Counted from the first letter of the stretch, positions 1,269 through 15,700 are shown. The stretch: DNA of 16,397 bases from an uncultured Verrucomicrobiota bacterium (GCA_964514435.1 CAZEQV010000042.1:1-16397); one strand, 5' to 3'. Notes: generated from the letters alone by a model not told the origin. Numbers and translations are program-made.

Positions 1269-2216
1269 CTACTTTGGCGGTTCGACGAGCTGCTGCAACT
1301 TTTCGTCGGCGGTCAGATACTGCGCGACACCCGTGGCGGGGCCGACGCCGCTGGCTTCAGTCGTGGTTTGCCGGGCTTGGGCGACGATGTCGAGGAAGAA
1401 CGCCTCCAAATCGCGCCGGGGATGTTCCAGCGTCGGTTCGCTGCCGAGTTCCGCGCGAGCCGCCGCGAGGATACGCTGCAGCGACTCCGCCGGCAACTCC
1501 GGCAACGCCAGCCGGTATTGCGACTTCTGTTCGAGCAACTCGTTGATCGTGCCCTGCGCCTGAATCTTGCCGTTGTAAAGAATCGCCACCCGGTCGCACA
1601 CGTCCTCCACATCGGCAAGCAGATGCGATGACAGTATCACCGTCTTGCCGCGCGCCGCGAGCGCCTTGATCAAGTCCTTCACCTGCCGGCAACCGATGGG
1701 GTCGAGGCCGGAGGTCGGCTCGTCGAGGATGACGAGGTCCGGATCGTTGATGAGTGCCTGCGCGAGGCCGATGCGGCGCGCCATACCTTTGGAAAATTCG
1801 CCGACTTGCCGGCTGTGCGCGTGGCGGAGGCCGATCATATCGAGCAACTGCGCCGTGCGCTCCCGGCGTTCGCCGGCCGGCAAGTCGAACAACATCCCGT
1901 AAAACGTCAGCGTCTCCCGCGAAGTCAGATACGGATAACTGTAGGTTTCTTCCGGCAAGTAACCGATGCGTTTCTTGGTCTGGACATCGCGCGGCGAACG
2001 GCCGAGCACGCGCAGTTGGCCGCGGGTCGGATGCAACAGCCCGAGGATCATCTTGATCGTGGTGCTCTTGCCGGACCCGTTCGGGCCGAGCAACCCGAAG
2101 ACCTCACCGGCGCGCACTTCAAAAGAAACGTCGTTGACCGCCCGGACTTTCGGCCGCCGCCAAAAATCGGTGAAGACTTTGGTGAGATGCGCCGCTTCGA
2201 TGATCGGATCATTCAT
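1269..2216 (-). CDS. ABC transporter ATP-binding protein (ABC-2 type exporter ATPase)
   Basis: Walker A GPNGSGKST, signature FSKGMARR, Walker B LVILDEPTSGLD and H-loop SSHLL are all present. The true ATG at 2216-2214 (MNDPIIEAAHL) is preferred over the TTG at 2231. This start overlaps the upstream ParE stop by 8 nt. Confidence 0.92.
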   Translation of the reverse strand: MNDPIIEAAHLTKVFTDFWRRPKVRAVNDVSFEVRAGEVFGLLGPNGSGKSTTIKMILGLLHPTRGQLRVLGRSPRDVQTKKRIGYLPEETYSYPYLTSRETLTFYGMLFDLPAGERRERTAQLLDMIGLRHAHSRQVGEFSKGMARRIGLAQALINDPDLVILDEPTSGLDPIGCRQVKDLIKALAARGKTVILSSHLLADVEDVCDRVAILYNGKIQAQGTINELLEQKSQYRLALPELPAESLQRILAAARAELGSEPTLEHPRRDLEAFFLDIVAQARQTTTEASGVGPATGVAQYLTADEKLQQLVEPPK

Positions 2217-2511
2217 CCAGTCGCTCCTCAATTGTGGCAGGTTCCCGCGCCAGATGGAGAATGGCTTTCACAACGATGCGCTCTTGATGAAGCTGGTAAT
2301 AGACACCGTAGGGAAAGGTGCGCAACAAAACACGCCGATGCACGGCATCCACTTGCGGAACCGACTCGGGGAATGCTGCCACCTGCCGCAATGCCTCGTC
2401 CAATGCCTCCAAAAAACGCAATTCCAAACCCACTCCTTGTCGCGCATACCACTGACACCCGTTCCGAATATCCTGCTCCGCGTTTGAGCGGATCACGATG
2501 CGCCGGCTCAT
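2209..2511 (-). CDS. Type II toxin-antitoxin system ParE/RelE family toxin
   Basis: The 100-aa product MSRRIVIRSNAEQDIRNGCQWYAR...FPYGVYYQLHQERIVVKAILHLAREP has the ParE-like fold signature. The internal ATG at 2511-2509 was verified. Its start overlaps the antitoxin stop as ATGA. Confidence 0.8.
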   Translation of the reverse strand: MSRRIVIRSNAEQDIRNGCQWYARQGVGLELRFLEALDEALRQVAAFPESVPQVDAVHRRVLLRTFPYGVYYQLHQERIVVKAILHLAREPATIEERLDE

Positions 2512-2725
2512 AGCTGCCGGCGGATCCGGTCCCTGACGACCTCCCACGGTTCGCCCGCTTCGGGATTCTTCAGAAACTCCTGATGCCGCTCCGCGAGGAT
2601 GCGCCGATGCCATTCGGGGACGGGAATCTCATCCGCATGCGCGGCCACGTCCGACCAGAGTTGGTCAATCAACTGCAACTTGTCGGCGACCGACAGCCTT
2701 TCCACTTCCGGGATCATGAGTTTGC

Positions 2726-2729
<4 letters not shown>
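2508..2729 (-). CDS. Putative addiction-module antitoxin (small helical 'addiction module component' family, pairs with ParE/RelE)
   Basis: The 73-aa acidic product is MSKLMIPEVERLSVADKLQLIDQLWSDVAAHADEIPVPEWHRRILAERHQEFLKNPEAGEPWEV. It sits immediately upstream of the toxin and overlaps it. Its ATG at 2729-2727 overlaps the TGA stop of the P-type ATPase. Confidence 0.72.
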
Positions 2730-4643
<1,914 letters not shown>

Positions 4644-4657
<14 letters not shown>

Positions 4658-5159
4658 AGGCGGCGGAAGAGTGGATGGTTGGATGAGTGGAAGGATGGAT
4701 GGGGGAAAGGGTGGAAGATTGAGGGACTTCGTAGGCGGCATTGGATTCGCGGACGATGAAACTTTCGTTCCAATCACCCTCTTCCAGTTTGTGCTGGAGT
4801 GATTCGATGAGCCTCTTGAGACCATTCTCCATCGTATAGGCAATGGCATCGCATTTTTCGAATTGGTCCGGGGTGATCTGGTTGCTGCGGCGATAGGCGT
4901 GGAGGCCGGAAACGGTTTCGCCGGCGGAACCGAGCGCAATGTTGAGGTGCTGGAGATATTCTTTCAAGGTGCGCCGGCAGTAGCCTTCCGCGATGTTGCG
5001 ATGGATGGAATCGGCAGCGGCCATCTGGTTGGCGGCGATGCGTCGTAATTCGTAGGGAAACGAGCGGAAGATGTCGCAGGTGAGGACGTAGTATTCAATC
5101 GCATCCTGCCAAACAACAAGTTGCCGGTATCCACGATTGATGTTCCGTCGGGGACTCAT
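4644..5159 (-). CDS. Four helix bundle protein (Avd / 23S rRNA-intervening-sequence protein family), copy A. Its C-terminal tail is encoded by the repeat array.
   Basis: The core YRQLVVWQDAIEYYVLTCDIFRSFPYELRRIAANQMAAADSIHRNIAEGYCRRTLKEYLQHLNIALGSAGETVSGL is typical of this family (NIAEG...K.F...L..A.GS..E). The ATG at 5159-5157 was verified (MSPRRNINRG). The last ~30 codons (LSPIHPSTHPTIHSS) are read from the GGATGG array. The stop at 4644 lies 14 nt inside the ATPase start. Confidence 0.75.
4666..4726. repeat. Degenerate GGATGG/GGAAGG heptamer-like tandem array; the downstream (3') arm of the inverted-repeat pair around four-helix gene A
   Basis: Plus strand reads gaagagtggatggttggatgagtggaaggatggatgggggaaagggtggaagattgaggga. 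This is the reverse complement of the array at 5160-5246. Confidence 0.75.
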
Positions 5160-5246
5160 CCACCCTTCCATCCTTCCATCCATCGTTTCCTCCATTATTC
5201 CATCCCTCCCATCTCCCACCTGTCCATCCTTCCATTCTTCCCTCAC
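5160..5246. repeat. CCATCC/CCTTCC heptamer-like tandem array; the upstream arm of the inverted-repeat pair around four-helix gene A
   Basis: Plus strand reads cacccttccatccttccatccatcgtttcctccattattccatccctcccatctcccacctgtccatccttccattcttccctcactcc. It spans exactly from the HflK-like stop (5243-5245) to the four-helix A ATG (5159). Confidence 0.75.
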
Positions 5247-6256
5247 TCCGCCCCTCCGATCGGTTTCGGTTCTGGTGTGAGCAGCAGCCGCAGTTCTTGC
5301 TGGCCGTGCTCGTTTCGGTGGATGAGGAACTTCTGGTCCACGTTGCTGAGCGTGCGGCGGAGCGTGTCTTGGAGCAGCGTCCGCGCGATGATGTCGGGGT
5401 TTTTCTGGTATTGCTCGTAAACTTTGGTGAAGTAATCCGCGCTTGCGCCAACCTCGGCCACGACGCGGCGTTTGTAGGCTTCGCCTTCGGCGATAAGCCG
5501 GGCGGCTTCGCCTTGCGCTTCGTTCAACGTGCGCGTGGCGAGCGCGCGCGCCGCGCTGATCTTGCCGCTGCGTTCCTGCTCCGCCTCGATGACCGCGCTG
5601 AACGCGGCGGCGACTTGCCGGGGCGGCAACAGGGCGAGCACGTCCACACGCTCAATCCGCACCCCAAGCCCCAGCGCATCCACCCGGCGGCGCAACTCAC
5701 CATCCACCGCGTCGCGCAACGCCTCGATCTCGGTCCGCAACGCTTGATCCACGGGGAACCGCGCCGTGCATTTGACGATGGCGTGGTCAAGCTCGCGCTG
5801 GAGAATGGCGGACGGGTCTCTCAGCCGGAAACTATACGTTTCCAAATCCACGACCGTGTAACGGACGGCCCATTTGGCGTGGATCAGGTTGGCGTCGCCG
5901 GTCAGGGTGTAACCATCGGCACCGGGCTGCAACGTCGCGGCGCCCGAGTTCTCACGAGGCATGAACGTGCCGGTTTCCACGGCTTGCACCCGCTCGGTCG
6001 GGATGCGGACGATTTCCGCGACCGGCTTGGGCCACGTCCAATGCAGGCCGGGACCTTTCAACCGGTCCGCACCCATGCCGGCAATCTTGCCGAACACGAG
6101 AACGTAGGCGCGTTCGTGTTGGCCGACGATGAAGACGCCGGAGAACAGGTACGCGACCACGACGCCGACCATCACCCAGCGTAACGCGCGGAAACTCGTC
6201 GTCAGCGCGCCGGTGAGGGCGGCTTGGCCGGTATCGTTGTGTGTGGTCTGAGTCAT
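5243..6256 (-). CDS. SPFH/Band-7 family protein, HflK-like
   Basis: An N-terminal TM segment (WVMVGVVVAYLFSGVFIV) is followed by an SPFH domain (ERAYVLVFGKIAG...GLHWTWP) and a coiled-coil region (AEQERSGKISAARALA...AEGEAYKRRVVAEVGA). The ATG at 6256-6254 overlaps the upstream TAA by 1 nt. Confidence 0.75.
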   Translation of the reverse strand: MTQTTHNDTGQAALTGALTTSFRALRWVMVGVVVAYLFSGVFIVGQHERAYVLVFGKIAGMGADRLKGPGLHWTWPKPVAEIVRIPTERVQAVETGTFMPRENSGAATLQPGADGYTLTGDANLIHAKWAVRYTVVDLETYSFRLRDPSAILQRELDHAIVKCTARFPVDQALRTEIEALRDAVDGELRRRVDALGLGVRIERVDVLALLPPRQVAAAFSAVIEAEQERSGKISAARALATRTLNEAQGEAARLIAEGEAYKRRVVAEVGASADYFTKVYEQYQKNPDIIARTLLQDTLRRTLSNVDQKFLIHRNEHGQQELRLLLTPEPKPIGGAE

Positions 6257-7149
6257 TATTTTTTTGGGAGCGCCTTGTCGCCTTGGAGCAGGTCGAACGG
6301 TTCGGTTTCGCTGCTCAACACGACGGTGGATTTGGTCTTCAACGTCAATTCGAGGACTTCCAATTTCCGGAGGAACATCGCCAGCTCGGGGTTCTTCTCG
6401 AACACCTGATACGATTCCGCCGCCTTCGCATCGCCCTCGGCGCGGATGCCTTTGGCCTCGGCTTCCGCTCTGGCGAGGAGTTGATTGCGGGTGCTGTCGG
6501 CTTCGGCGCGCAACTTGATCGCTTCCCCTTCGCCCTCGGACCGGTAACGCTCGGCAATCTCCTCGCGTTCGGCGCGCATCCGGGCGAACACCTTTTCCGT
6601 GATGGATTCCGGCAACCCAATTTTGCGGACGCCGAGGAACTGCACCTCGACGCCATACCGGCTCACCGCCTCCGGTTGGACTGCCGCCAGCATCTGCTGT
6701 TCGATGGCCTCGAACTGCACGGCGGCGGCGTTGGTGTTGATCAAGCCGGCAAAGGGAAACTGGCCGAGCACGGCGTTTTTCTGACTGCGCAGCAGGCCGT
6801 CGAGATTGCGCTCGGCTTGTTCGACCGTGCCGACGCGTTCGAGAAATTGAATCGGCTGCTGAATCCGCCAGCCGGCATAGACGGCGACGAGGATGTTCTT
6901 GCCGTCGCGGGTCAAAGTTTCTTCAAACGCCCCTTCGAGCGTATGCGTCCGGTTATCGAACCGGTAAATCCGTTGCACCGGCCACGGCCAGCGCGTGTAC
7001 AGCCCGGCCGCGGTGAGTTCGCGCACCGGCTTGCCGAATGTGGTGACAACGACGGCCTCGCCTTCGCGCACCGTGAACAGCACTTGGAGCAGCACAAACA
7101 TCACGGCCACCAGCAGGCCGACGGTTAAAAGCAACGTGTTTCGTTTCAT
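6256..7149 (-). CDS. SPFH/Band-7 family protein, HflC-like
   Basis: MKRNTLLLTVGLLVAVMFVLLQVLFTVREGEAVVVTTFGKPV...RMRAEREEIAERYRSEGEGEAIKLRAEAD parallels the E. coli HflC architecture. A GGAGG sequence sits 7 nt upstream of the ATG 7149-7147. Confidence 0.75.
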   Translation of the reverse strand: MKRNTLLLTVGLLVAVMFVLLQVLFTVREGEAVVVTTFGKPVRELTAAGLYTRWPWPVQRIYRFDNRTHTLEGAFEETLTRDGKNILVAVYAGWRIQQPIQFLERVGTVEQAERNLDGLLRSQKNAVLGQFPFAGLINTNAAAVQFEAIEQQMLAAVQPEAVSRYGVEVQFLGVRKIGLPESITEKVFARMRAEREEIAERYRSEGEGEAIKLRAEADSTRNQLLARAEAEAKGIRAEGDAKAAESYQVFEKNPELAMFLRKLEVLELTLKTKSTVVLSSETEPFDLLQGDKALPKK

Positions 7150-7165
7150 CGGATAACCTCCGTGG

Positions 7166-7229
7166 AAATGACGAATGACGAATGACCAATGACGAAAGAA
7201 TGACGAGGGCGGAAATGACGAATGGATGG
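7166..7229. repeat. AATGACG heptamer tandem array; the downstream arm of the inverted-repeat pair around four-helix gene B
   Basis: gaaatgacgaatgacgaatgaccaatgacgaaagaatgacgagggcggaaatgacgaatggatgg. It is the reverse complement of the array at 7585-7633. It ends in ggatgg, the unit of the element-A arrays. Confidence 0.8.
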
Positions 7230-7231
7230 CA

Positions 7232-7630
7232 TCAGTCGGCGCTCCTTCCGTTGCGCATGATCGCGGCGAAGATCAGATGCAATTCTTTGGCTTCTTGCCA
7301 GAGTTTGCGCGCGGTTTCTTTGTGGGATGGTTCGGCGGTGGCAATCATACGGAGCCAGTGTTTCGTTTCGCGCGCCTCGCGTTTGCAGATGCTGATTTTA
7401 TGCAGAAAATCTTTCTTCGAGTGTGCGTCATCCGCTTCCACGTAGTTGGCCCCGACGCTGGTTCCCGACCGCACTAACTGACTCACCAATGGTAGCGTAA
7501 CCGGCGTGCTAGGCACGCTCCTGCAAAAACCAATGATTGCCTCGCCAAAAACAGCCGTGCGTTCTTCGAGGTCAAATTTCGGCTTCGTCATTGGACATTC
7601 TTTCGTCATTCGGATTTCGTCATTCGTCAT
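7232..7630 (-). CDS. Four helix bundle protein (Avd / 23S rRNA-intervening-sequence protein family), copy B
   Basis: FDLEERTAVFGEAIIGFCRSVPSTPVTLPLVSQLVRSGTSVGANYVEADDAHSKKDFLHKISICKREARETKHWLRMI are family motifs. Three in-frame ATGs (7630, 7609, 7591) are all created by AATGACG repeat units. The ATG at 7630 overlaps the upstream TGA as ATGA, and the likely functional start is 7591 (MTKPKF). Confidence 0.8.
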   Translation of the reverse strand: MTNDEIRMTKECPMTKPKFDLEERTAVFGEAIIGFCRSVPSTPVTLPLVSQLVRSGTSVGANYVEADDAHSKKDFLHKISICKREARETKHWLRMIATAEPSHKETARKLWQEAKELHLIFAAIMRNGRSAD

Positions 7631-7633
7631 TTC
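7585..7633. repeat. CGTCATT heptamer tandem array; the upstream arm of the inverted-repeat pair around four-helix gene B
   Basis: tcgtcattggacattctttcgtcattcggatttcgtcattcgtcatttc. The TGA stop of the upstream SPFH-fusion gene (7629-7627) is itself the first TGA of an AATGACG unit. Confidence 0.8.
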
Positions 7634-9432
7634 TTCGCACCCAGATCGAACAACTCGGGGCGCAGTTTCTCTTCAAAGTTCAGTTGATAGACTTCATTCG
7701 ACGCCGAGGCCGGCACGATAAACTTCCGCGTATCGGTCAACGCCCGCGCCACCGTGTCGAGATACAGGCTGGTGCGGAAAACTTGCGGCGATTTCTTGGC
7801 GGTCTCGGCTTGGATGAGAAACCGCTTGGCCTCGGCGGCGGAAATCTCCGCGCGCTGGGTCCGGTAAGCGGTCGCTTCAAGATTCGCCTTCGACGCCTCG
7901 GCGCCGGCCAGCGTCACGGTCTTGCCGGCTTGGGCGCGGGCGGCGAGCACGGTGGCTTCCTTTTGTTCGAGCGCACCGATGACGGATTGAAACGCCTCGG
8001 CGACTTGCGTCGGCGGATGCACGCCTTGGAGGCCCACGAACACGATGTGAACGCCGAGTTGCCGGCGGTCGGCTTCGGCTTGGATGCGTTGGCGGAGCGA
8101 CTCGGCGATGCGGGCTTGGCCGGGACCCATGATCTCAAACAGGTCGTGCGTGGCGGCTTCGAACGTGAGGCTCCGGTAAGCGATTTGCTCGATCAGGCGA
8201 CCGGCATCGGCGTTGTGGTACGCGAACGCCATCACGTTGGTGATTTGATATTCGACCGGGATATTGAAAGCGACGAGGTTGACCGGCACGCTGCCCTCGC
8301 CGACGCGCGGGGCGGCGACGAGAAATTGGTCTTCGCCTTCGGCGTGCGGGATATTCCACTGAATGACGGCTGGCTCGACGCCGGTGCTTTGGGGTTGGCC
8401 GATGCGAAAATTGAGGACGCGCTTGGCTGGGAAGCGTTGCACGACCTCGAACGGCCACGGGGCTTTCAGGTGAAACCCGCTGTCGAGGTGCGTGACCGGC
8501 TTGCCGAAGCGTTCGAGGATACCGCGTTCGTCGGGGCCGAGGAACACGAGGCAGGAAAGCAGATAGAGCGCGACGATCTGGAAGATGACCAGCGGCAACA
8601 ACGCGCCTTCGAGGAACCGGAACAACCACGTCTCGGAGACTTTGAAGCCGAATTGATAATCGAGCGCCCCGGCGACGTTGCGCGCCCAAGCGCCGGGGGC
8701 GATGAGCAGCTCGCCCAGCCGACTTTCATACGACCGGCAAGGTTCGCCGCGTCGGGGCCGGTAAAGTTCGGCGATGAAGTTGAGGAGGTTTTCCGCCGCC
8801 AAAACCACGAGGAAGCCGGTGAGGATGACGGCCGCCCAACGGTCCGCGGCCGGGAATCCAGCCTCGCCGGCCAACGTTGCCGCACCGGCCATCAACGACG
8901 CGATGCACGCCACGCCCAACGCGATACCGGCCCCGCGCAGCAGTCTTCCCAGTCCGAGCAGATACCGGCTGAGCAGGAACATGGTGAATGCCTGTCCGCC
9001 CAACGCCGCCAACGTCATCAGGCGGTGAGCCGGTGGGGTGGCCGGCAAGTTCAGATGCCGGTAGAGCCACCAAGTCACGGCGGCCAAACCCATGGCCAAT
9101 AGAAGGGCGATGGCGGGGACGAAGAACCGCTCGAATTGTTGCCGCGTGCGGGCGACGGTGAACAGTTCGGGCGCGGTTTCCCGGTCGAAGATCGAAGCGC
9201 TGGTTCGTTCGCGTTCCAGCAAGGCGGCTTCTTGTTTTTCTTCTTCGGCGCGGCGGGCGAGGCGTTCACGGATGAGAACCAGCAAGGACACGGCCAATGC
9301 CAGAGCGGGATAAGCGAGCAACGCCGGCAAGACACGGAGATGCGTCGCGCGGGCGAGCACGGCGTCCACGACCAGCCACGCCACGGCCAGCAGCGCCGCC
9401 AGCAGGGCGATTCGTTCGTTGCGTTTGTCCAT
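7627..9432 (-). CDS. Polytopic membrane protein fused to a C-terminal SPFH/Band-7 (HflK-like) domain
   Basis: Start taken at the verified ATG 9432-9430 (MDKRNERIALLAALLAVAWLV), which overlaps the upstream TGA by 1 nt. About 6-7 predicted TM helices in the first ~330 aa are followed by an SPFH domain (PDERGILERFGKPVTHLDSGFHLKAPWPFEVVQ...). A coiled-coil Ala/Glu-rich tail (ARAQAGKTVTLAGAEASKANLEATAYRTQRAEISAAEAKRF) ends the protein. Confidence 0.7.
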   Translation of the reverse strand: MDKRNERIALLAALLAVAWLVVDAVLARATHLRVLPALLAYPALALAVSLLVLIRERLARRAEEEKQEAALLERERTSASIFDRETAPELFTVARTRQQFERFFVPAIALLLAMGLAAVTWWLYRHLNLPATPPAHRLMTLAALGGQAFTMFLLSRYLLGLGRLLRGAGIALGVACIASLMAGAATLAGEAGFPAADRWAAVILTGFLVVLAAENLLNFIAELYRPRRGEPCRSYESRLGELLIAPGAWARNVAGALDYQFGFKVSETWLFRFLEGALLPLVIFQIVALYLLSCLVFLGPDERGILERFGKPVTHLDSGFHLKAPWPFEVVQRFPAKRVLNFRIGQPQSTGVEPAVIQWNIPHAEGEDQFLVAAPRVGEGSVPVNLVAFNIPVEYQITNVMAFAYHNADAGRLIEQIAYRSLTFEAATHDLFEIMGPGQARIAESLRQRIQAEADRRQLGVHIVFVGLQGVHPPTQVAEAFQSVIGALEQKEATVLAARAQAGKTVTLAGAEASKANLEATAYRTQRAEISAAEAKRFLIQAETAKKSPQVFRTSLYLDTVARALTDTRKFIVPASASNEVYQLNFEEKLRPELFDLGAKK

Positions 9433-10376
9433 CAGGCTTTGGTCTCGACGTTGCGGAACAGGAGCATGCCCAAACTCAGCACCCCAAGCAAATAGAACAT
9501 AGCATAGCCCGTGACTTGCCGGACATACGCCCATGGCACGGTCCCCTCGCCCGCGAGCGCGTCCGCCGTCCAAAAATGCTGCCAGTTCGGCAGGAGATTA
9601 TAGAAGAACGCGGCGAGGATGTTCGTTGGCGCATGTCGTCCGAGGAGGTAATCGGTGATCAATCCGGCCAGAAAGACGACGGTGCAAATAGCCAGGGTGG
9701 GCACGAGGTCAAGCCGGCTTGTCAGCGCCAAGGCGATTCCCGCCAACACGATGGTCGCCAGCGAAACGAGCGCCGATGAAGGCAGGACACGCCAAGAAAA
9801 ACCTTCGCGACCGGTGGCCAGCCACAACATTATGAAAATTAGGGGAATGAGCAGAACGAGCGCGGTGGAGACGAAATGCCAACGCGTGAGAATATTCAGT
9901 GCCGCCGCGACACCCAACGCAACGGCAATCGCCGTGATTGTTCCACCGGCGACCATCCAATCCACCTGATAGGCCTCGTGGCTGGCTTGGGAACTGAGCA
10001 ACGTCCCAAGTGCGATGACCGCGTCGAAGAGACTGAGCACCAAGACCACGCCGGCAAACTTGGCGAGAAAATACAGTTCACGACTGATGGGCTTCACCAA
10101 GACCACCGCCAAAGTGCCTCTTTGGATTTCCTTCCCCAGGGCGAAGCTGGCCGTGTAACCAGCCAGCACCAGACCGGCGACGAAATGCAACGCCAGCGCG
10201 CTGTCTTGGACGACCTGTTGGGCCTGCCCCATGGTGTGCATCAACAAGGCCGGCATCAGGGCTATGAACACCAAGCAGCTCACTGTCAACAGCAGCAGAA
10301 ATGGTTGCCGGACCGCTTCAAACAGAGTTAACGTCGCAACCGCTGCGAATCGCTTGAGAGAGTGGTGAAAGCTCAA
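9432..10376 (-). CDS. ABC-2 family transporter permease (paralog of the 1-1131 product)
   Basis: MSFHHSLKRFAAVATLTLFEAVRQPFLLLLTVSCLVFIAL...KEIQRGTLAVVLVKPISRELYFLAKFAG, with about 6 TM segments. The start codon at 10376 is TTG (no ATG nearby), so the exact start is uncertain. It is the first gene of the minus-strand operon. Confidence 0.65.
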   Translation of the reverse strand: MSFHHSLKRFAAVATLTLFEAVRQPFLLLLTVSCLVFIALMPALLMHTMGQAQQVVQDSALALHFVAGLVLAGYTASFALGKEIQRGTLAVVLVKPISRELYFLAKFAGVVLVLSLFDAVIALGTLLSSQASHEAYQVDWMVAGGTITAIAVALGVAAALNILTRWHFVSTALVLLIPLIFIMLWLATGREGFSWRVLPSSALVSLATIVLAGIALALTSRLDLVPTLAICTVVFLAGLITDYLLGRHAPTNILAAFFYNLLPNWQHFWTADALAGEGTVPWAYVRQVTGYAMFYLLGVLSLGMLLFRNVETKA

Positions 10377-10692: not shown

Positions 10693-12705
10693 ATGGATCA
10701 AGCGACAAATCAAATACTGTCGGCTCGGCGCGTGGCGGCGGCGGTGACGGTGGCCTTGCTCGGAAGCGCCATTGTCTGGGTGGCGGTGCCCTATAATAAT
10801 TTCTGGCTCAAGAATACCTACTTGTCCGACACGTTTCTTCCAGAGATTGCCATCGCGTTTCTATTGCTGCTGGTGTTGGTGGTGAATCCGTTGTTGCATG
10901 TGCTCCGGCCGGCTTGGGTGCTGCAACGGCGGCAGGTGGCGTTGATTGCGAGCCTGATGTTGTTTGCGGCGGTGCTGCCCAGTAACGGCTTGATGCGGAT
11001 GTTTCCCCGATTCGTTGCGCAATCGAATCAGGGCATGAATCAGAATCCGACGACGGCGCGCATCGCCGCGGAGGCTGGGTTCCGGCAGGCCTTGTTCCCC
11101 GATCCGTTGCCGGCGCGCGGGGCGGATGGGAGCGTGCAGACGCATGAGACGCCGGTCTCGGACCAGTTTCTGGATGAATTGGCCGAAGGCGCGACGATTC
11201 CGTGGTCGGCGTGGATCTGGCCCATGACGGCGTGGGGGCTGTTGATCGTCGCGCTGTGGACGATGATGATTGGGCTGGGGGGTATGGTGTATCCGCAGTG
11301 GCGGGACCGGGAACGGTTGCCGTTTCCGCTGTTGAACGTCTATCACGCGCTCATCGGCGATCCCGACAACCAGTCAAAAGGTTTGTTGCCGTCGGTATTC
11401 CGAAGCCGGGGCTTTTGGATTGCGGCCATCGTGGTGTTCATCATCCACGCCACGCGCGGGTTGAGCGCGTTCACCGGGGCGTTCCCCGAATTTCCTTTGT
11501 CGTGGAACCTGGAGGCATATTTCACGGACAGCATTTTTCGGCACACCACCATTGCGCTGAAGCGGCAATCCATCTTTTTCGCGCTGATCGGCGTGGCGTA
11601 TTTCATTCCGAACCGGTATGCGATTTCAGTGTGGGGGTGGGTGGTGGGGTATGCGTTGTATGTGATGGCGGGCCGGGCGTTCGTGCCGGCGTTCAATGAG
11701 GGCCAGGCGGCCGACCAGTCGTTTGGCGCGTTGCTGGCGATTGCGGCGTGGGTGTTGTGGTTGGGGCGGACGCATTGGGCGCAGGTCGGCCGCGCGATGC
11801 TCGGCCGGGCCGGTGAGGGAGCGGAAAGCCGCCGGGATGGGCTGGCGGGGTGGATGTTTGCTGGCGGGTGTGCCGGGATCGTTTGTTGGTTGTATTGGGC
11901 GGGGTGTTCGTTGTGGTGGAGTCTGCTGGCCATGTTCGGCTGCGCGGTGGTGACGTTGTTGATGGCGCGCATCATCGCGGAGACGGGGATACCGGTGTTG
12001 TGGGTCGGTCAGATGAGCGTGGGCCAACTGACCGCGCTGTTTCCGCTCTCGTGGCAATCGCCCGTGATTCTCTATTTCACGGGGGTATTTCACGTTTTGT
12101 TGACGCGGGCGTCGGCGATGAGCGCGGCGGTGATCACCACGCTCTCGTTGGGGATGGATCGAAAGGCGTCCGCCGCGAATCATTCCCGGCTGCTCTTGGC
12201 CGGGTTGGTGGTGTTGGTGCTGGGGTTCGTGGTGTGCGGCGCGGTGCATCTGAACATGGGCTACTACAGCGCGGACATCACGACGGAGGCCAAAACGGAC
12301 GCGAGCCGGCTCAACGATTGGGTGCGGGCGGATCGGGCGACCTTCGATTTCTTCACGATCAAGCGATGGCATCAAGGAGTTGGGGCGACGATTGCCGGCG
12401 GGTTGTTGTGGGTGTGTTCGCGTTTTCCATCCTGGCCGATACATCCGGTGGGGATTATTTTTTGCCAGCTCAGCATCGGCAATCTCATCTGGTTCAGCAT
12501 TTTTGCGGGTTGGCTGCTGAAGACGGCCATTACCGGGCTGTTTGGGGGCGGGGCGTACCGGAAAGCGCGGCCGGTTTTCTTGGGATTGATCTTTGGTGAA
12601 TTGTTGGCGGTCATCGTCTGGACGTTGGTGCCGGTGATCATTATTTGGGTGACCGGCGCGGACCCGGCCACGGTGCCGCGCTATATGTTGATGCAATATC
12701 CGTAA
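10693..12705 (+). CDS. Large polytopic integral membrane protein of unknown function (670 aa, more than 12 predicted TM helices)
   Basis: ATG at 10693 and TAA at 12703-12705. Hydrophobic helices run throughout (VALLGSAIVWVAV, IAIAFLLLLVLVV, WGLLIVALWTMMIGLGG, FWIAAIVVFIIHA, AISVWGWVVGYALYVMAG and others). No recognisable catalytic motifs. Trp/Gly-rich. Confidence 0.7.
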   Translation: MDQATNQILSARRVAAAVTVALLGSAIVWVAVPYNNFWLKNTYLSDTFLPEIAIAFLLLLVLVVNPLLHVLRPAWVLQRRQVALIASLMLFAAVLPSNGLMRMFPRFVAQSNQGMNQNPTTARIAAEAGFRQALFPDPLPARGADGSVQTHETPVSDQFLDELAEGATIPWSAWIWPMTAWGLLIVALWTMMIGLGGMVYPQWRDRERLPFPLLNVYHALIGDPDNQSKGLLPSVFRSRGFWIAAIVVFIIHATRGLSAFTGAFPEFPLSWNLEAYFTDSIFRHTTIALKRQSIFFALIGVAYFIPNRYAISVWGWVVGYALYVMAGRAFVPAFNEGQAADQSFGALLAIAAWVLWLGRTHWAQVGRAMLGRAGEGAESRRDGLAGWMFAGGCAGIVCWLYWAGCSLWWSLLAMFGCAVVTLLMARIIAETGIPVLWVGQMSVGQLTALFPLSWQSPVILYFTGVFHVLLTRASAMSAAVITTLSLGMDRKASAANHSRLLLAGLVVLVLGFVVCGAVHLNMGYYSADITTEAKTDASRLNDWVRADRATFDFFTIKRWHQGVGATIAGGLLWVCSRFPSWPIHPVGIIFCQLSIGNLIWFSIFAGWLLKTAITGLFGGGAYRKARPVFLGLIFGELLAVIVWTLVPVIIIWVTGADPATVPRYMLMQYP

Positions 12706-12737
12706 TGCGGAATGCGGAAATCGGAATGCGGAATCAC
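12704..12737. repeat. Solo AATGCGG heptamer tandem array at a gene junction
   Basis: aatgcggaatgcggaaatcggaatgcggaatcac lies immediately after the TAA of the upstream gene. It supplies both candidate ATGs (12705, 12726) of the downstream gene. It is the same unit type as the arrays flanking four-helix gene B, but has no inverted partner and no enclosed gene. Confidence 0.7.
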
Positions 12738-15700
12738 AATACGACAACCTGGGGAAAGGCGCGGGGCGGCGAGCTTCGACCGCATTCTGCTTTTCGCATT
12801 GCGCCTTTGGCGGTCTGGCTGGTTTTGTGGTGCGGTGTTGCGGCGGCGTCCGATGACGATTTTGCGGCGCGCGTGCGGGCGGACACGGAATGGTTGAGCG
12901 GCTACGAGACACGTCAAGTGGGGACCCCAGCGCACCGGCGCGTGCAGGATGATTTGTTGGCCAAGCTTCGGGCGATCCCGGGCGCGCGGGTCTGGACGGA
13001 TGAGTTTCCGGTCGTCGTGCCGGTCCACACGGAGACGTATCTGGAGGTGGCCGGGCGGCGGGAAACGATCTATCCGCTGTGGCCGGATGTGGCGCGGTTG
13101 AATACGACGCCCCCGGACGGGATTAGCGGGAAGTTGATTTATGTGGGGGATGGGGACTACGGGCGATTGCCGGCGCGGAGTCTGCGGGGCAACATCGCCG
13201 TGATGGAGATGTCGGCCTGCGCGGATTACCCGCGAGTGTTCGACTTTGGCGCGTCGGCGGTGATTTTTCTGGAATCAGCGAAGGTCGGCGAGGTGATCAC
13301 CTCGCAACAATCGCTGTACAAGCCCCGGTACTATGTAAAGGCCGGGGCGTTGGCGGACGCGTTGCGCGCCGGCCCGGTTTCGGCCGGCAAGATTGTGTGT
13401 CGGGGCCGGTGGGAGACGGTCATGGCGCGCAACATCTATGCGGCCGTGAACGCGTCCGGTGCGAAAGGCGAGGCGCCGTACGCGGTCGTCGCGCCGTATG
13501 ATTCAATGAGCCGGGTGGTGGGGGTGGCACCGGGCGCTGACAGCGCGTTGGACTGCGCGATTGTGTTGAATCTGTTGCGGGACGTGGCCGGTCAGGCGCC
13601 GCGGCCGTTGCTGTTCGGGTTTGTGGACGCCTACCATATTAATCAACTGGGGATACGGCGGATGTCGGCGATGTTGACGAGCACGCCGAAGTGCCAAACC
13701 CGCGAGGCCTACCGGAAGATCGAACAGAAGGAACTCGACGCCTACCGGGAAGCGGCGAAGGAACTGGCGAAGTTTGACACCGTCGAGGCGGGACTGGCCG
13801 GGTTGAATAACCGGTACGCGGCGCCGCAGTTGCGCCGCTTGTTCAAGGACGCGGTGGGCACGGATTTGCTCCGGCTGCGCGAGCTTCAGGGAGAATTGCG
13901 CCTGGCGTCGCTGCGGATTGAGACGGAGAACTCACCGGCGATGCGGGTGCAGATGCTGGGGGCGTTGGAGAACAGCGCCGCCTGGCTGCTGGCGCATGTG
14001 GCGGGCGAGTTGACGACCGAGCAGCGCGCGGAGTTGGTGGCGGCCCGGCAGTTTGTGGCCGGACAAGATGTGGCGTCCGAGCCTTGGCAGGAGCTGGCCG
14101 GGGCGCGGGAACGGGCGAAGGGTTTGTTGGCGATTTGCACGGGCCCGTTGCGGGCGCGGAATCGGGTGTTGGAGGCGGTGTTGACGGGTGACCGGGAGGT
14201 ACCGGCGGAGTTTCTGCCGGTGGCGCGGACGATCTGGCAGGATGTGGCCGAGCGGGTGCGGGAACAGGTGCGGGAACAGGAGCAGCGGGCCGCGTTTTTC
14301 GAGCCGTTGGACCGCTTGCGGCGTGAAGTCGCGGAGCATTTTCAATTGCACACCGATGGCGTGGACCGGGCCGTGTGCAAGTTTGTCGTGGGCGTTGACC
14401 TGTCCGACTGCGGCGTGTTGGTGGGGCCGGGCATGCTGTGCGGTTACAACCGCATCGAACCGACGGACAAAGACTTGATGCGCGTGTTGAAGCGGGTGGT
14501 GAAACGCGGAGAAATCTGGCCGGCCCATTCGCCGGAGCGCAAGGTGGTCAATCTCGGCGCGATCGAAGGCCGGGTGGGTGGCAGCGGCGACATCGGGCAG
14601 CGGGCGTTGATCACGTCGGCGGCGCGGAGCTTCTTGTTGCCGGGCGTGACGTGGGTGACCGACGACGCGTTGCGCCAGCGGATGGATTCGCCGATGGACC
14701 GGTTTGACCAAGTGGATTGGAGCCGGATTGATCCGCAGTTGCCGGCCACGCGGCGTTTTCTGGATTGGTTGTTCACGTCCAAGGAGTTTGTGCCGGTCGC
14801 GAAGTCCGCGGAGGAAACCGCGGCGGCGTGGCGGCACGGGATGGGGCGCGTGGTCAATGTGTCGGCCGGCGAGACGGTGCCGCGCGTGCCGCAGCGCGGG
14901 TTCTTGGTGACGTTGATTGCCTATGGAGCGAACCGCGATGGCATTCGGCGGCAGGAGTTCGCGTGGACGGGGTACGACGGATCGTTTCGGATTCCGCTGA
15001 TGTGCGGCGAGATCAACGCCAACGTGCTAAACGGCAAAAACTTCAACATGGAGGCATTCAAACTCGATGAGTCGGGCGCGATTGTCGAGTCGTTGACCAA
15101 GACCGAGTCGCTCGTGGCGACGCGGTTGGCGACGACGTTCAGCGTCAGCACCAAGCCCGGCGAGCAACTGCCGCGCGCGGTGACGTTTGAATGCGCGGAG
15201 TTGAACGGGCCGGCATTCTTCGACGCGCGGTTCATGGAGCCGCTGACGCAGGCGATGTTGCTGGACGCGGGGCGCGGCGGGCCGCCGAAGAAGTCGTTGT
15301 TCAAAATGGACAGCACCGGCCAGATGTGGGGGCTGGTTCCGCCGGGAATGCGCTGGCAACTGGTGGTGCGCGCCGGCGCGGCGGGCGTGCGCATGGCGTT
15401 GCTCAACGCGGTGCCGGACGGCCGGCAGCGGGGACTGGATCTGCGTTCCACGTTCCAGCGCGGTTTCGAGGTGGAGGAACGGTTGCCGTCCCTCCCGGCG
15501 CACCTGGCGGCGCAAGACATCTATGTGTTGAACGATTGGCGGCTGACGGATTTCCGCGCGGCCGGGATTCGCAGCGAGAAGATTGACCAGATTCGCGCCG
15601 GCACGAAGAGGGAGTTGGAACTGGCCGCGGCGGCGCAGGCGGCGGATGACGCGGCCCGGTTGCAGCGCGCGGCGAACCGGGCGTTGGCCAGCGAGATCCG

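Follow-up and report, generated by a model that had tools for sequence, protein, structure and literature searches.

A 16,397-nucleotide stretch of DNA from an uncultured Verrucomicrobiota bacterium (GCA_964514435.1, CAZEQV010000042.1:1-16397; hereafter the window) carries, at positions 4644-5246 on the minus strand, a small gene that is bracketed by short tandem repeats and wedged between two genes of an operon. This unit, cassette A, is probably, though far from certainly, one copy of a widespread, promoter-less, co-transcribed insertion element of the intervening sequence (IVS) type that occupies spaces between cistrons. The element consists of a TIGR02436/PF05635 S23p/Avd-like gene lying between mirror-image tandem arrays, whose repeat unit is 8 nt long in type A and 7 nt long in type B. 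We show that it extends from the stop codon of the upstream gene (at or beside it) to the start of the downstream gene, between co-directional genes of an operon.

Structure of cassette A and of related elements in the window

The upstream host of cassette A is an HflK-like SPFH/Band 7 gene (5243-6256, minus strand; PF01145, 5.2e-21), and its downstream host is a P-type (E1-E2) ATPase gene (2726-4657, minus strand; PF00122 and PF00702). The open frame of the cassette (4644-5246, minus strand) matches PF05635 with an E value of 4.4e-18 and 65.9 bits (cutoff 33.8) and TIGR02436 with 70.4 bits (cutoff 24). The initial annotation had assigned the encoded protein to the Avd/23S-IVS four-helix-bundle family, and this assignment is borne out by both family models and by fold comparison. 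The AlphaFold2 monomer model of protein A (predicted local distance difference test score 89.3) has four long helices and a C-terminal helix, the last being an addition in type A relative to the family fold. Foldseek aligns the model with the Protein Data Bank entries 2GSC (template modeling (TM) score 0.92-0.94, root-mean-square deviation ~1.1 Å) and 2RLD (TM score 0.77-0.89). The match to Avd (4DWL) is weaker (TM score 0.87, probability 1.0, ~12% identity) and is accompanied by matches to the Avd chains in a diversity-generating retroelement (DGR) ribonucleoprotein. Avd was reached by fold search alone; a sequence-profile search of the Protein Data Bank with protein A did not reach it.

The likely start of gene A is the ATG at 5159-5157, which is the point where homologues begin to align, and the 29 codons that precede it in the open frame therefore merely translate the upstream array. 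From this ATG the four-helix-bundle gene, as delimited by PF05635, TIGR02436, and the homologue alignment, occupies 4644-5159 on the minus strand and encodes 171 amino acids. Its conserved core (4731-5159, 143 amino acids) ends in ...WNESFIVRESNAAY. As had been proposed, the last codons are a translation of the 3′ array; they number ~25 (..SPIHPSTHPTIHSS..) and are not conserved among homologues. The stop codon (TAG, 4646-4644) overlaps the start of the ATPase gene, 11 nt beyond its ATG. This likely ATPase start (ATG 4657-4655; MQTRSHAHQH..) is common to the window and to relatives with an empty site, in which ATGCAAACCC adjoins the HflK gene directly.

The flanking arrays were described in the initial annotation as heptamer repeats, which proved incorrect for cassette A: Tandem Repeats Finder (TRF) gives the 5′ array a period of 8, with 10.4 copies and 70% matches. 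These ~10 degenerate units fill the interval from the HflK-like TGA to the gene A ATG (5157-5245, minus strand), where such an array had been annotated, with the TGA (5245-5243) as the opening triplet of the array region and the array itself at 5157-5243. On the minus strand it reads GGAAGAAT GGAAGGAT GGACAGGT ... GGAAGGGT GGATGAGT; it is GGA-rich, with a unit of (A/G)TGGA plus variable bases, and it includes several ATGs, the last of which is the start of gene A. The reverse-complement array that had been noted at the 3′ end of the gene was recovered at ~4664-4722 (minus strand; TRF), with CCATCC/CTTCC units running to the ATPase ATG. The motif TGGAN4TGGAN4TGGA occurs seven times in the window, solely in the two cassette A arrays, compared with 0.07 expected. 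The arrays are inverted complements, with 71-83% complementarity over 24-48 nt (inverted pairs I1-I6), and in the minus-strand RNA from 4640-5260 they are paired in both the minimum free energy and the centroid fold (z -2.7), in agreement with the pairing that the initial annotation had predicted.

Further copies, for which the initial annotation had proposed a search, were found in the window and in many genomes. Within the window, the minus-strand gene order is SPFH, cassette B, HflC-like, HflK-like, cassette A, P-type ATPase. Cassette B (7147-7634, minus strand) thus separates two SPFH genes of this operon, namely the upstream SPFH gene (7627-9573, minus strand; TGA stop at 7629-7627) and the HflC-like SPFH gene (6256-7149, minus strand), and its repeats are true heptamers. 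The 5′ array of AATGACG units (7592-7634, minus strand) gives five motif matches compared with 0.27 expected, and its first unit holds the upstream SPFH TGA (7629-7627) in an ATGA overlap. The ATG of four-helix-bundle gene B (7232-7591, minus strand, 119 amino acids; PF05635 3.7e-15, 56.5 bits; TIGR02436 78.4 bits) sits in the last heptamer unit of this array. After the gene B stop comes the 3′ array of CGTCATT heptamers (7167-7223, minus strand), followed by GGAGG and the HflC-like ATG (7149-7147). Protein B is ~19% identical to protein A. The arms of cassette B pair in the predicted RNA fold (z -3.0), and in both cassettes, therefore, inverted repeats form a predicted stem around a sense-oriented S23p open reading frame (ORF), which is a feature of IVSs. 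A promoter and terminator scan revealed no promoter-like or terminator-like site inside cassette A or B.

The window also includes a hairpin that lacks an ORF (12703-12808, plus strand), which is likewise built of true heptamers. Four AATGCGG units begin at the TAA of a DUF6785/DUF6784 gene; ~45 nt further on they are partly mirrored (CCGCATT..CGCATT), with no ORF in between. The fold has a stem of ~22 bp and an energy of -50 kcal/mol (z -2.4).

Presence and absence at operon junctions, and distribution of the design

The orthologous SPFH-SPFH-SPFH-ATPase operon was recovered in ~15 lineages by a metagenome scan and by look-ups of host proteins, and its three junctions were compared: J1 (SPFH/HflC-like), J2 (HflC-like/HflK-like), and J3 (HflK-like/ATPase). 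In the window, J1 holds cassette B, J2 is empty, and J3 holds cassette A. All three junctions are empty in L018 and L041/42 (HflC identity to the window 93%), in L022, L023, L025, and L026 (87-88%), and in L045 (80%). The same lineages answer the search for an empty site at the HflK-ATPase junction that the initial annotation had called for, with filled J3 sites in the window and in L019, L021, and L024. In L024 (84%), J1 holds a B cassette, J2 an ORF-less 8-mer hairpin of ~205 nt, and J3 an A cassette. L019 and L021 (85%) have the same three occupants, with the contig ending inside the A cassette, and L020 (84%) has the J2 hairpin of ~205 nt, a J1 element with both arrays and an ORF reduced to its two ends, and at J3 a 5′ array followed by unrelated DNA. 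Two other lineages are partly occupied: L043 (88%) has a decayed B cassette at J1, ~150 nt without arrays at J2, and an empty J3, and L046 (77%) is empty at J1 and J2 and carries a 100-nt GTGTTCA heptamer hairpin at J3. Hence the occupant of J3 differs between lineages: the window has a cassette of 8-mers there, and L046 has a hairpin of GTGTTCA heptamers.

Past the J3 5′ array, the L020 contig (2500-3300) enters unrelated DNA and the ATPase gene is missing; the array there marks either the breakpoint of a rearrangement or a join made in assembly.

Where a junction is empty, it is compact and its sequence is conserved (for example, J1 AAGTAACGC ATG, J2 ATAATGA, and J3 TAAC ATG). At J3, the HflK-like gene of L018 overlaps the ATPase ATG, and that of L022 ends ..PPARQ* TAAC ATG. 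The host genes of L019, L020, L021, and L024 are mutually 99% identical, and in the host-protein tree this filled lineage is nested among empty lineages that have identical junction sequences and are paraphyletic. Because of this nesting, at least the L019-L024 lineage gained its three elements. For the window, either a gain or a loss in L018/L041 is possible. The closest counterparts of the window cassettes are the ones that occupy the corresponding junctions in the other clade (72-75% identity). In the broad sense, then, we are dealing with a mobile or insertion element, present at some orthologous sites and absent from others where the empty site is intact. None of the refuting conditions named in the initial annotation was encountered. 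When filled sites were set against empty ones at J1, J2, and J3, no target-site duplication was seen; instead, the upstream gene has its final few codons replaced.

The ORF is under strong purifying selection and, judging by its codon substitutions, does not behave as a decaying passenger. Pairs of ORFs at orthologous sites have ratios of nonsynonymous to synonymous substitution rates (dN/dS) of 0.06-0.10, with 0.057 for gene A and its L024 orthologue, and such ratios imply that the four-helix protein is made and matters. Individual copies nonetheless decay, with frameshifts in L012, L015, and L016 and a premature stop in L013. ORF-less hairpins can be traced as internal-deletion derivatives of ORF-bearing copies, both at J1 of L020 and in L006, where an ORF-less hairpin occupies the exact site of a full cassette in L008 and L012. 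Loci that bear cassettes include many more ORF-less inverted-array hairpins with various units, compared with none in empty loci, and array copy number varies among the near-identical (99%) populations L019, L021, and L024.

More than 2100 homologues of protein A were recovered, and the 120 best are 60-75% identical and ~150 amino acids long; many homologues have repeat-encoded tails (MEERKDGR.., ..HSSIIPPFQ, LPPIHSSNLPPIHSS). A scan of one genome per species for type A returned 16 loci, from metagenome-assembled genomes (MAGs) of Kiritimatiellales, Verrucomicrobiota, Limisphaerales, Chthoniobacter, Desulfobacteraceae, Calditrichia, and Phycisphaeraceae. In 15 of the 16, 8-nt arrays (GGAATnnT, GGAGTnnT, or GGAAGnnT) precede the gene and begin just past the upstream stop, and a reverse-complement array follows the gene and ends just before the next ATG. 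The type A protein tree splits by repeat unit, with a GGAGT clade that spans three phyla, indicating that gene and arrays travel together. Protein B has at least 8000 homologues (68-82% identity), and two further type B loci (gcvPA/gcvPB and ABC ATPase/permease) have inverted AATGNCN 7-nt arrays. The gene upstream of the cassette ORF points in the same direction in at least 18 of 20 cases, and the gene downstream does so in at least 18 of 21. At least nine different repeat units, each mirrored by its own reverse complement, occur in more than 25 loci of several phyla, and the units of different element types (GGAAT, AATGACG, GTGTTCA, CAGAAGT) are wholly different. Elements are also retained at orthologous sites across genera (L004/6/7, L003/8/12/15, and L002/11).

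Several loci have additional features. In the type II secretion operon of two Kiritimatiellales MAGs (L002 and L011), successive junctions each carry a cassette or an array hairpin: upstream of gspF, between gspF and gspG, after gspG, and between later pseudopilin genes. At one of these junctions, a 5′ array is followed by a different palindrome, similar to a repetitive extragenic palindrome (REP), in place of the mirror array. Inverted CAGAAGT heptamer arrays at 450-972 of L021 (and at ~1400-1500 of L024) surround ~350 nt of noncoding DNA that has another repeat, GCGCGGTCGGGACACCGCCGCCCTACC, twice, indicating that array pairs can enclose things besides a four-helix gene. In the gcvT/gcvPA gap of a B-cassette operon (L028, 140-1130), a 161-aa ORF has a weak match to IS200-like Y1 transposases and long flanking inverted repeats; gene calls for this ORF differ among contigs L028-L037, and it is possibly a REPtron-like neighbor.

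A scan of viral contigs revealed two distant four-helix relatives only, neither of which has arrays. On a viral contig (L047, IMGVR_UViG_3300025408_000073, 63-2477), a distant four-helix-bundle gene without arrays lies at 1492-1848 within an 804-aa ORF that, from its sequence alone, would be a PglX/type IIG methyltransferase. Throughout the length of the small gene the large ORF remains open in a different frame, and its conserved sequence resumes afterward, which looks like a gene nested in a gene with the host ORF unbroken.

Proposed mechanism and competing explanations

We envision that transcription of the host operon carries the element into the mRNA, where the arrays would pair to form a long imperfect stem with the ORF in its loop. 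By analogy with the 23S rRNA IVSs that carry the same protein family, RNase III may cut this stem, and the cut would release the four-helix mRNA and part the upstream and downstream cistrons without harm. The description of the cassette in the initial annotation as possibly RNA-processed can likewise be put forward by analogy with the rRNA IVS of Coxiella (PMC4990558). The 5′ array, with its stop triplets and its ATGA, TAATG, and TGATG overlaps, would terminate translation of the upstream gene and permit re-initiation on the cassette ORF. The 5′ arrays hold 37 stop triplets, compared with 19 when the 3′ arrays are read as their mirror image (p 0.022), and the three overlap motifs are twice as many in the 5′ arrays; such figures are no more than suggestive of a frame-independent stop and restart. 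In the window copy, read-through of the 3′ array by the ORF, with its stop over the ATPase ATG, might keep the ATPase translationally coupled. The ORFs of L024 and L002 likewise continue across the 3′ array, with a stop codon at or overlapping the ATG of the gene that follows. Because the HflK-like gene of the empty relative L018 itself terminates at a TAG matching the stop of the window cassette ORF, the cassette may relay translational coupling. The protein probably binds the RNA of its own element, like Avd in DGRs.

Several observations weigh against this interpretation of cassette A. An ancient insertion followed by repeated losses would explain the resemblance of the window cassettes to their counterparts in the other clade no less well than repeated or site-specific gain would. 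No transposase, reverse transcriptase, or recombinase was found near the cassettes in the window and related loci, and since there is no target-site duplication either, the case for mobility is solely one of comparative presence and absence. Cleavage by RNase III is proposed purely by analogy, and the enrichment of stop codons in the 5′ arrays is modest (p 0.02). The arms are ~77% matched, and the stems are interrupted every ~5-6 bp. There is no sense-strand G·U signature, in that G·U-type transitions number 17 for the sense strand and 40 for the antisense strand and 63 differences are transversions, although this imbalance may be due in part to the stop triplets in the 5′ arrays. Finally, in calculated duplex energies the arms were more stable on the sense strand in 5 of 17 cases, a noisy measure because long flanks force spurious pairing.

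Some of these points are in keeping with an element that acts as DNA, of the kind represented by repetitive extragenic palindromes associated with tyrosine transposases (REPIN/RAYT) or by miniature inverted-repeat transposable elements (MITEs). Its arrays would fold in single-stranded DNA and be moved by an enzyme encoded elsewhere, and the four-helix gene would be a passenger or regulator. The missing sense-strand G·U bias fits, since the antisense strand pairs better if anything, as do the dispersal of ORF-less hairpins over many junctions and the IS200-like Y1 gene flanked by inverted repeats in the L028 operon, whose match is weak (21 bits, cutoff 23). We nevertheless consider a DNA-level element distinctly unlikely: its ORF would not need to be co-oriented with the host operon, as it nearly always is, and a single sequence-specific transposase would be at odds with repeat units that differ fully between types. 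Moreover, repeat unit and protein clade diverge together, the hairpins are traceable to internal deletions of ORF-bearing copies, and neither a target-site duplication nor a conserved terminal sequence is present. An element copied through RNA would account for the co-orientation with transcription. If the protein were an Avd-type cofactor of a reverse transcriptase encoded elsewhere, the array-bounded RNA could serve as the template from which the element spreads, and the resemblance of its fold to Avd, including the Avd chains of the DGR ribonucleoprotein, would be explained, as would the parallel with DGR RNAs that have a duplex formed by template-flanking sequences and an Avd-binding stem-loop. 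However, the window and ~190 kb of related loci yielded neither a reverse transcriptase nor a template/variable repeat pair nor adenine-specific variation, and the likeness to Avd is at the level of the fold only (12% identity, no sequence-profile match), which makes such a retroelement accessory very improbable.

The strong purifying selection on the ORF invites an explanation in which the cassette serves its host. A module domesticated long ago might use the arrays to tune translational coupling or mRNA stability, possibly in a phase-variable manner through repeat slippage, with the protein having a cellular function. Retention at orthologous sites across genera, the enrichment of stop/restart motifs, the end of the ORF exactly over the ATG of the next gene, and the variable array copy number in the 99% identical populations L019, L021, and L024 are all in keeping with this idea. 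We regard it as unlikely because the closest relatives have compact, conserved junctions with no cassette at any of them, some copies carry frameshifts, have decayed, or have been deleted, thousands of paralogues reside in unrelated operons, and unrelated elements occupy the same junction in different lineages. That the complementarity arose by chance between two slippage-prone, low-complexity spacers, and is without significance, is scarcely credible. The arrays are indeed purine-rich or pyrimidine-rich low-complexity sequences, and shuffled controls already give fairly stable duplexes, but motif counts are far above the shuffled expectation, and the mirroring of nine or more repeat units across those many loci effectively refutes chance.

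Three other candidates were rejected. Integron cassettes were ruled out by the lack of an integrase or attC site, CsrA-sponge GGA arrays by the type B and other arrays that have no GGA, and CRISPR-like arrays by the absence of spacers. PADLOC and PHROGs gave no meaningful matches, and a defense-system or phage origin is thus unsupported by these searches. A CRISPR-discovery study (PMC10910872) includes '23S rRNA IVP' and 'HflK' among the proteins for which it gives a new association with CRISPR adaptation modules or arrays. As a speculation, tandem arrays beside PF05635 genes might be scored as CRISPR-like by discovery pipelines.

The IVS-type insertion element can also be extended to a broader proposal, which we hold to be possible but on balance doubtful. 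The cassettes may constitute an unrecognized class of autonomous selfish element in operon spacers across several phyla, whose Avd-like protein would act on its own array-bounded RNA through protection, processing, or RNA-mediated copying. The arms would be built for frame-independent stop and restart and hence for harmless insertion, gene-less hairpins would make up a large share of intergenic repeats, and rRNA IVSs would be a special case in which the element landed in rRNA.

Relation to known elements, and other features of the window

The four-helix family was first found in the RNase III-excised IVSs of Leptospira 23S rRNA, and the Avd protein of DGRs belongs to it. To our knowledge, the origin of rRNA IVSs has been an open question since about 1990, and we know of no function for the TIGR02436/S23p family, with its thousands of members, apart from that of the distant relative Avd. 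Our comparison with rRNA IVSs included those of Leptospira, Coxiella burnetii, Xanthomonas, and Brucella. In both settings, a sense-oriented ORF of the same protein family lies in a loop, flanking inverted repeats form a stem, the unit has no promoter and is transcribed from that of the host, and some copies have lost the ORF by deletion. In Coxiella, the IVS comprises an S23p ORF, tandem heptamers (GACAGAT, variable in copy number) directly upstream of the S23p ATG, and RNase III cuts in the stem that were mapped by rapid amplification of cDNA ends (PMC4990558). Its heptamers thus adjoin the ATG as the arrays do here. RNase III cutting is a feature of the Coxiella stem, and for the present element we only infer it. 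Unlike rRNA IVSs, which reside in helix 25 or 45 of 23S rRNA, the element lies between protein-coding genes (SPFH and P-type ATPase) of an mRNA operon, both of its arms are long tandem arrays (up to ~190 nt in L024), and its 5′ array supplies the stop codon of the upstream gene. Its ORF is under strong purifying selection, whereas Coxiella S23p appears to be unexpressed and decaying.

Avd of DGRs has the same four-helix-bundle fold. It binds an RNA stem-loop, and the DGR RNA has a duplex flanking the template repeat (bioRxiv 10.1101/2023.10.23.563531). However, neither the ORFs of the window nor the called genes of related loci include an adjacent reverse transcriptase or a template/variable repeat pair, and the closest solved relatives of protein A are 2GSC and 2RLD rather than Avd.

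REPIN/RAYT systems (REPtrons) and bacterial interspersed mosaic elements (BIME/REP) resemble the element in that short hairpin repeats are dispersed in operon spacers with many gene-less copies, and in REPIN/RAYT a protein gene is also flanked by repeats in inverted orientation. They differ in that the protein enclosed here is a PF05635 four-helix bundle without HUH/Y1 motifs and with no PF01797 match, the repeat unit is particular to each copy instead of following a single consensus throughout the genome, and the arms are tandem arrays rather than single palindromes.

The Correia elements of Neisseria (also known as NEMIS, Neisseria miniature insertion sequences) and other co-transcribed MITEs are small inverted-repeat elements beside genes that show insertion polymorphism between strains, and RNase III is reported to act on their RNA hairpins. 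Correia elements carry no ORF, and they have a TA target duplication and defined inverted repeats at their termini. The behavior of co-transcribed MITEs is like that of the present element, but the latter has arms made of tandem arrays, its full-length form encodes a conserved protein, and no duplication of the target was seen. The element lacks the defined terminal inverted repeats and target-site duplication of a MITE or classical transposon. The short tandemly repeated repetitive (STRR) sequences of heterocystous cyanobacteria are 7-nt tandem repeats that form intergenic arrays within operons; we know of no link between them and a four-helix gene or a mirror-image arrangement.

In the literature that we were able to cover, which was limited and is no proof of novelty, papers on rRNA IVSs and DGRs were found but no description of repeat-bracketed four-helix genes in operons outside rRNA, and the element has apparently not been described outside ribosomal RNA. 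Our findings indicate that the same gene-in-a-stem design is common in mRNA operons, where gains and losses occur at precise gene junctions and gene-less hairpins are left behind. What had been an annotation curiosity thereby becomes a defined element with testable predictions, namely RNase III ends within the arrays, binding of the protein to array RNA, and translational stop and restart in the 5′ array. Some of the short tandem repeats in the intergenic DNA of Verrucomicrobiota and Kiritimatiellota may owe their presence to the element, and it offers annotators a reason for the odd repeat-encoded N- and C-terminal tails on these small ORFs.

Among other features of the window, an Rfam scan (E <= 1) identified no rRNA or other family above threshold; a match to CcsR1 inside the SPFH coding region (8763-8840, minus strand; 25.7 bits compared with a gathering score of 65.3) is probably due to chance and was rejected. 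Directly downstream of the ATPase gene is a toxin-antitoxin pair (2209-2729, minus strand) that consists of an Unstab_antitox gene (2508-2729, minus strand; E 7e-14) and a ParE toxin gene (2209-2613, minus strand; E 5e-7).

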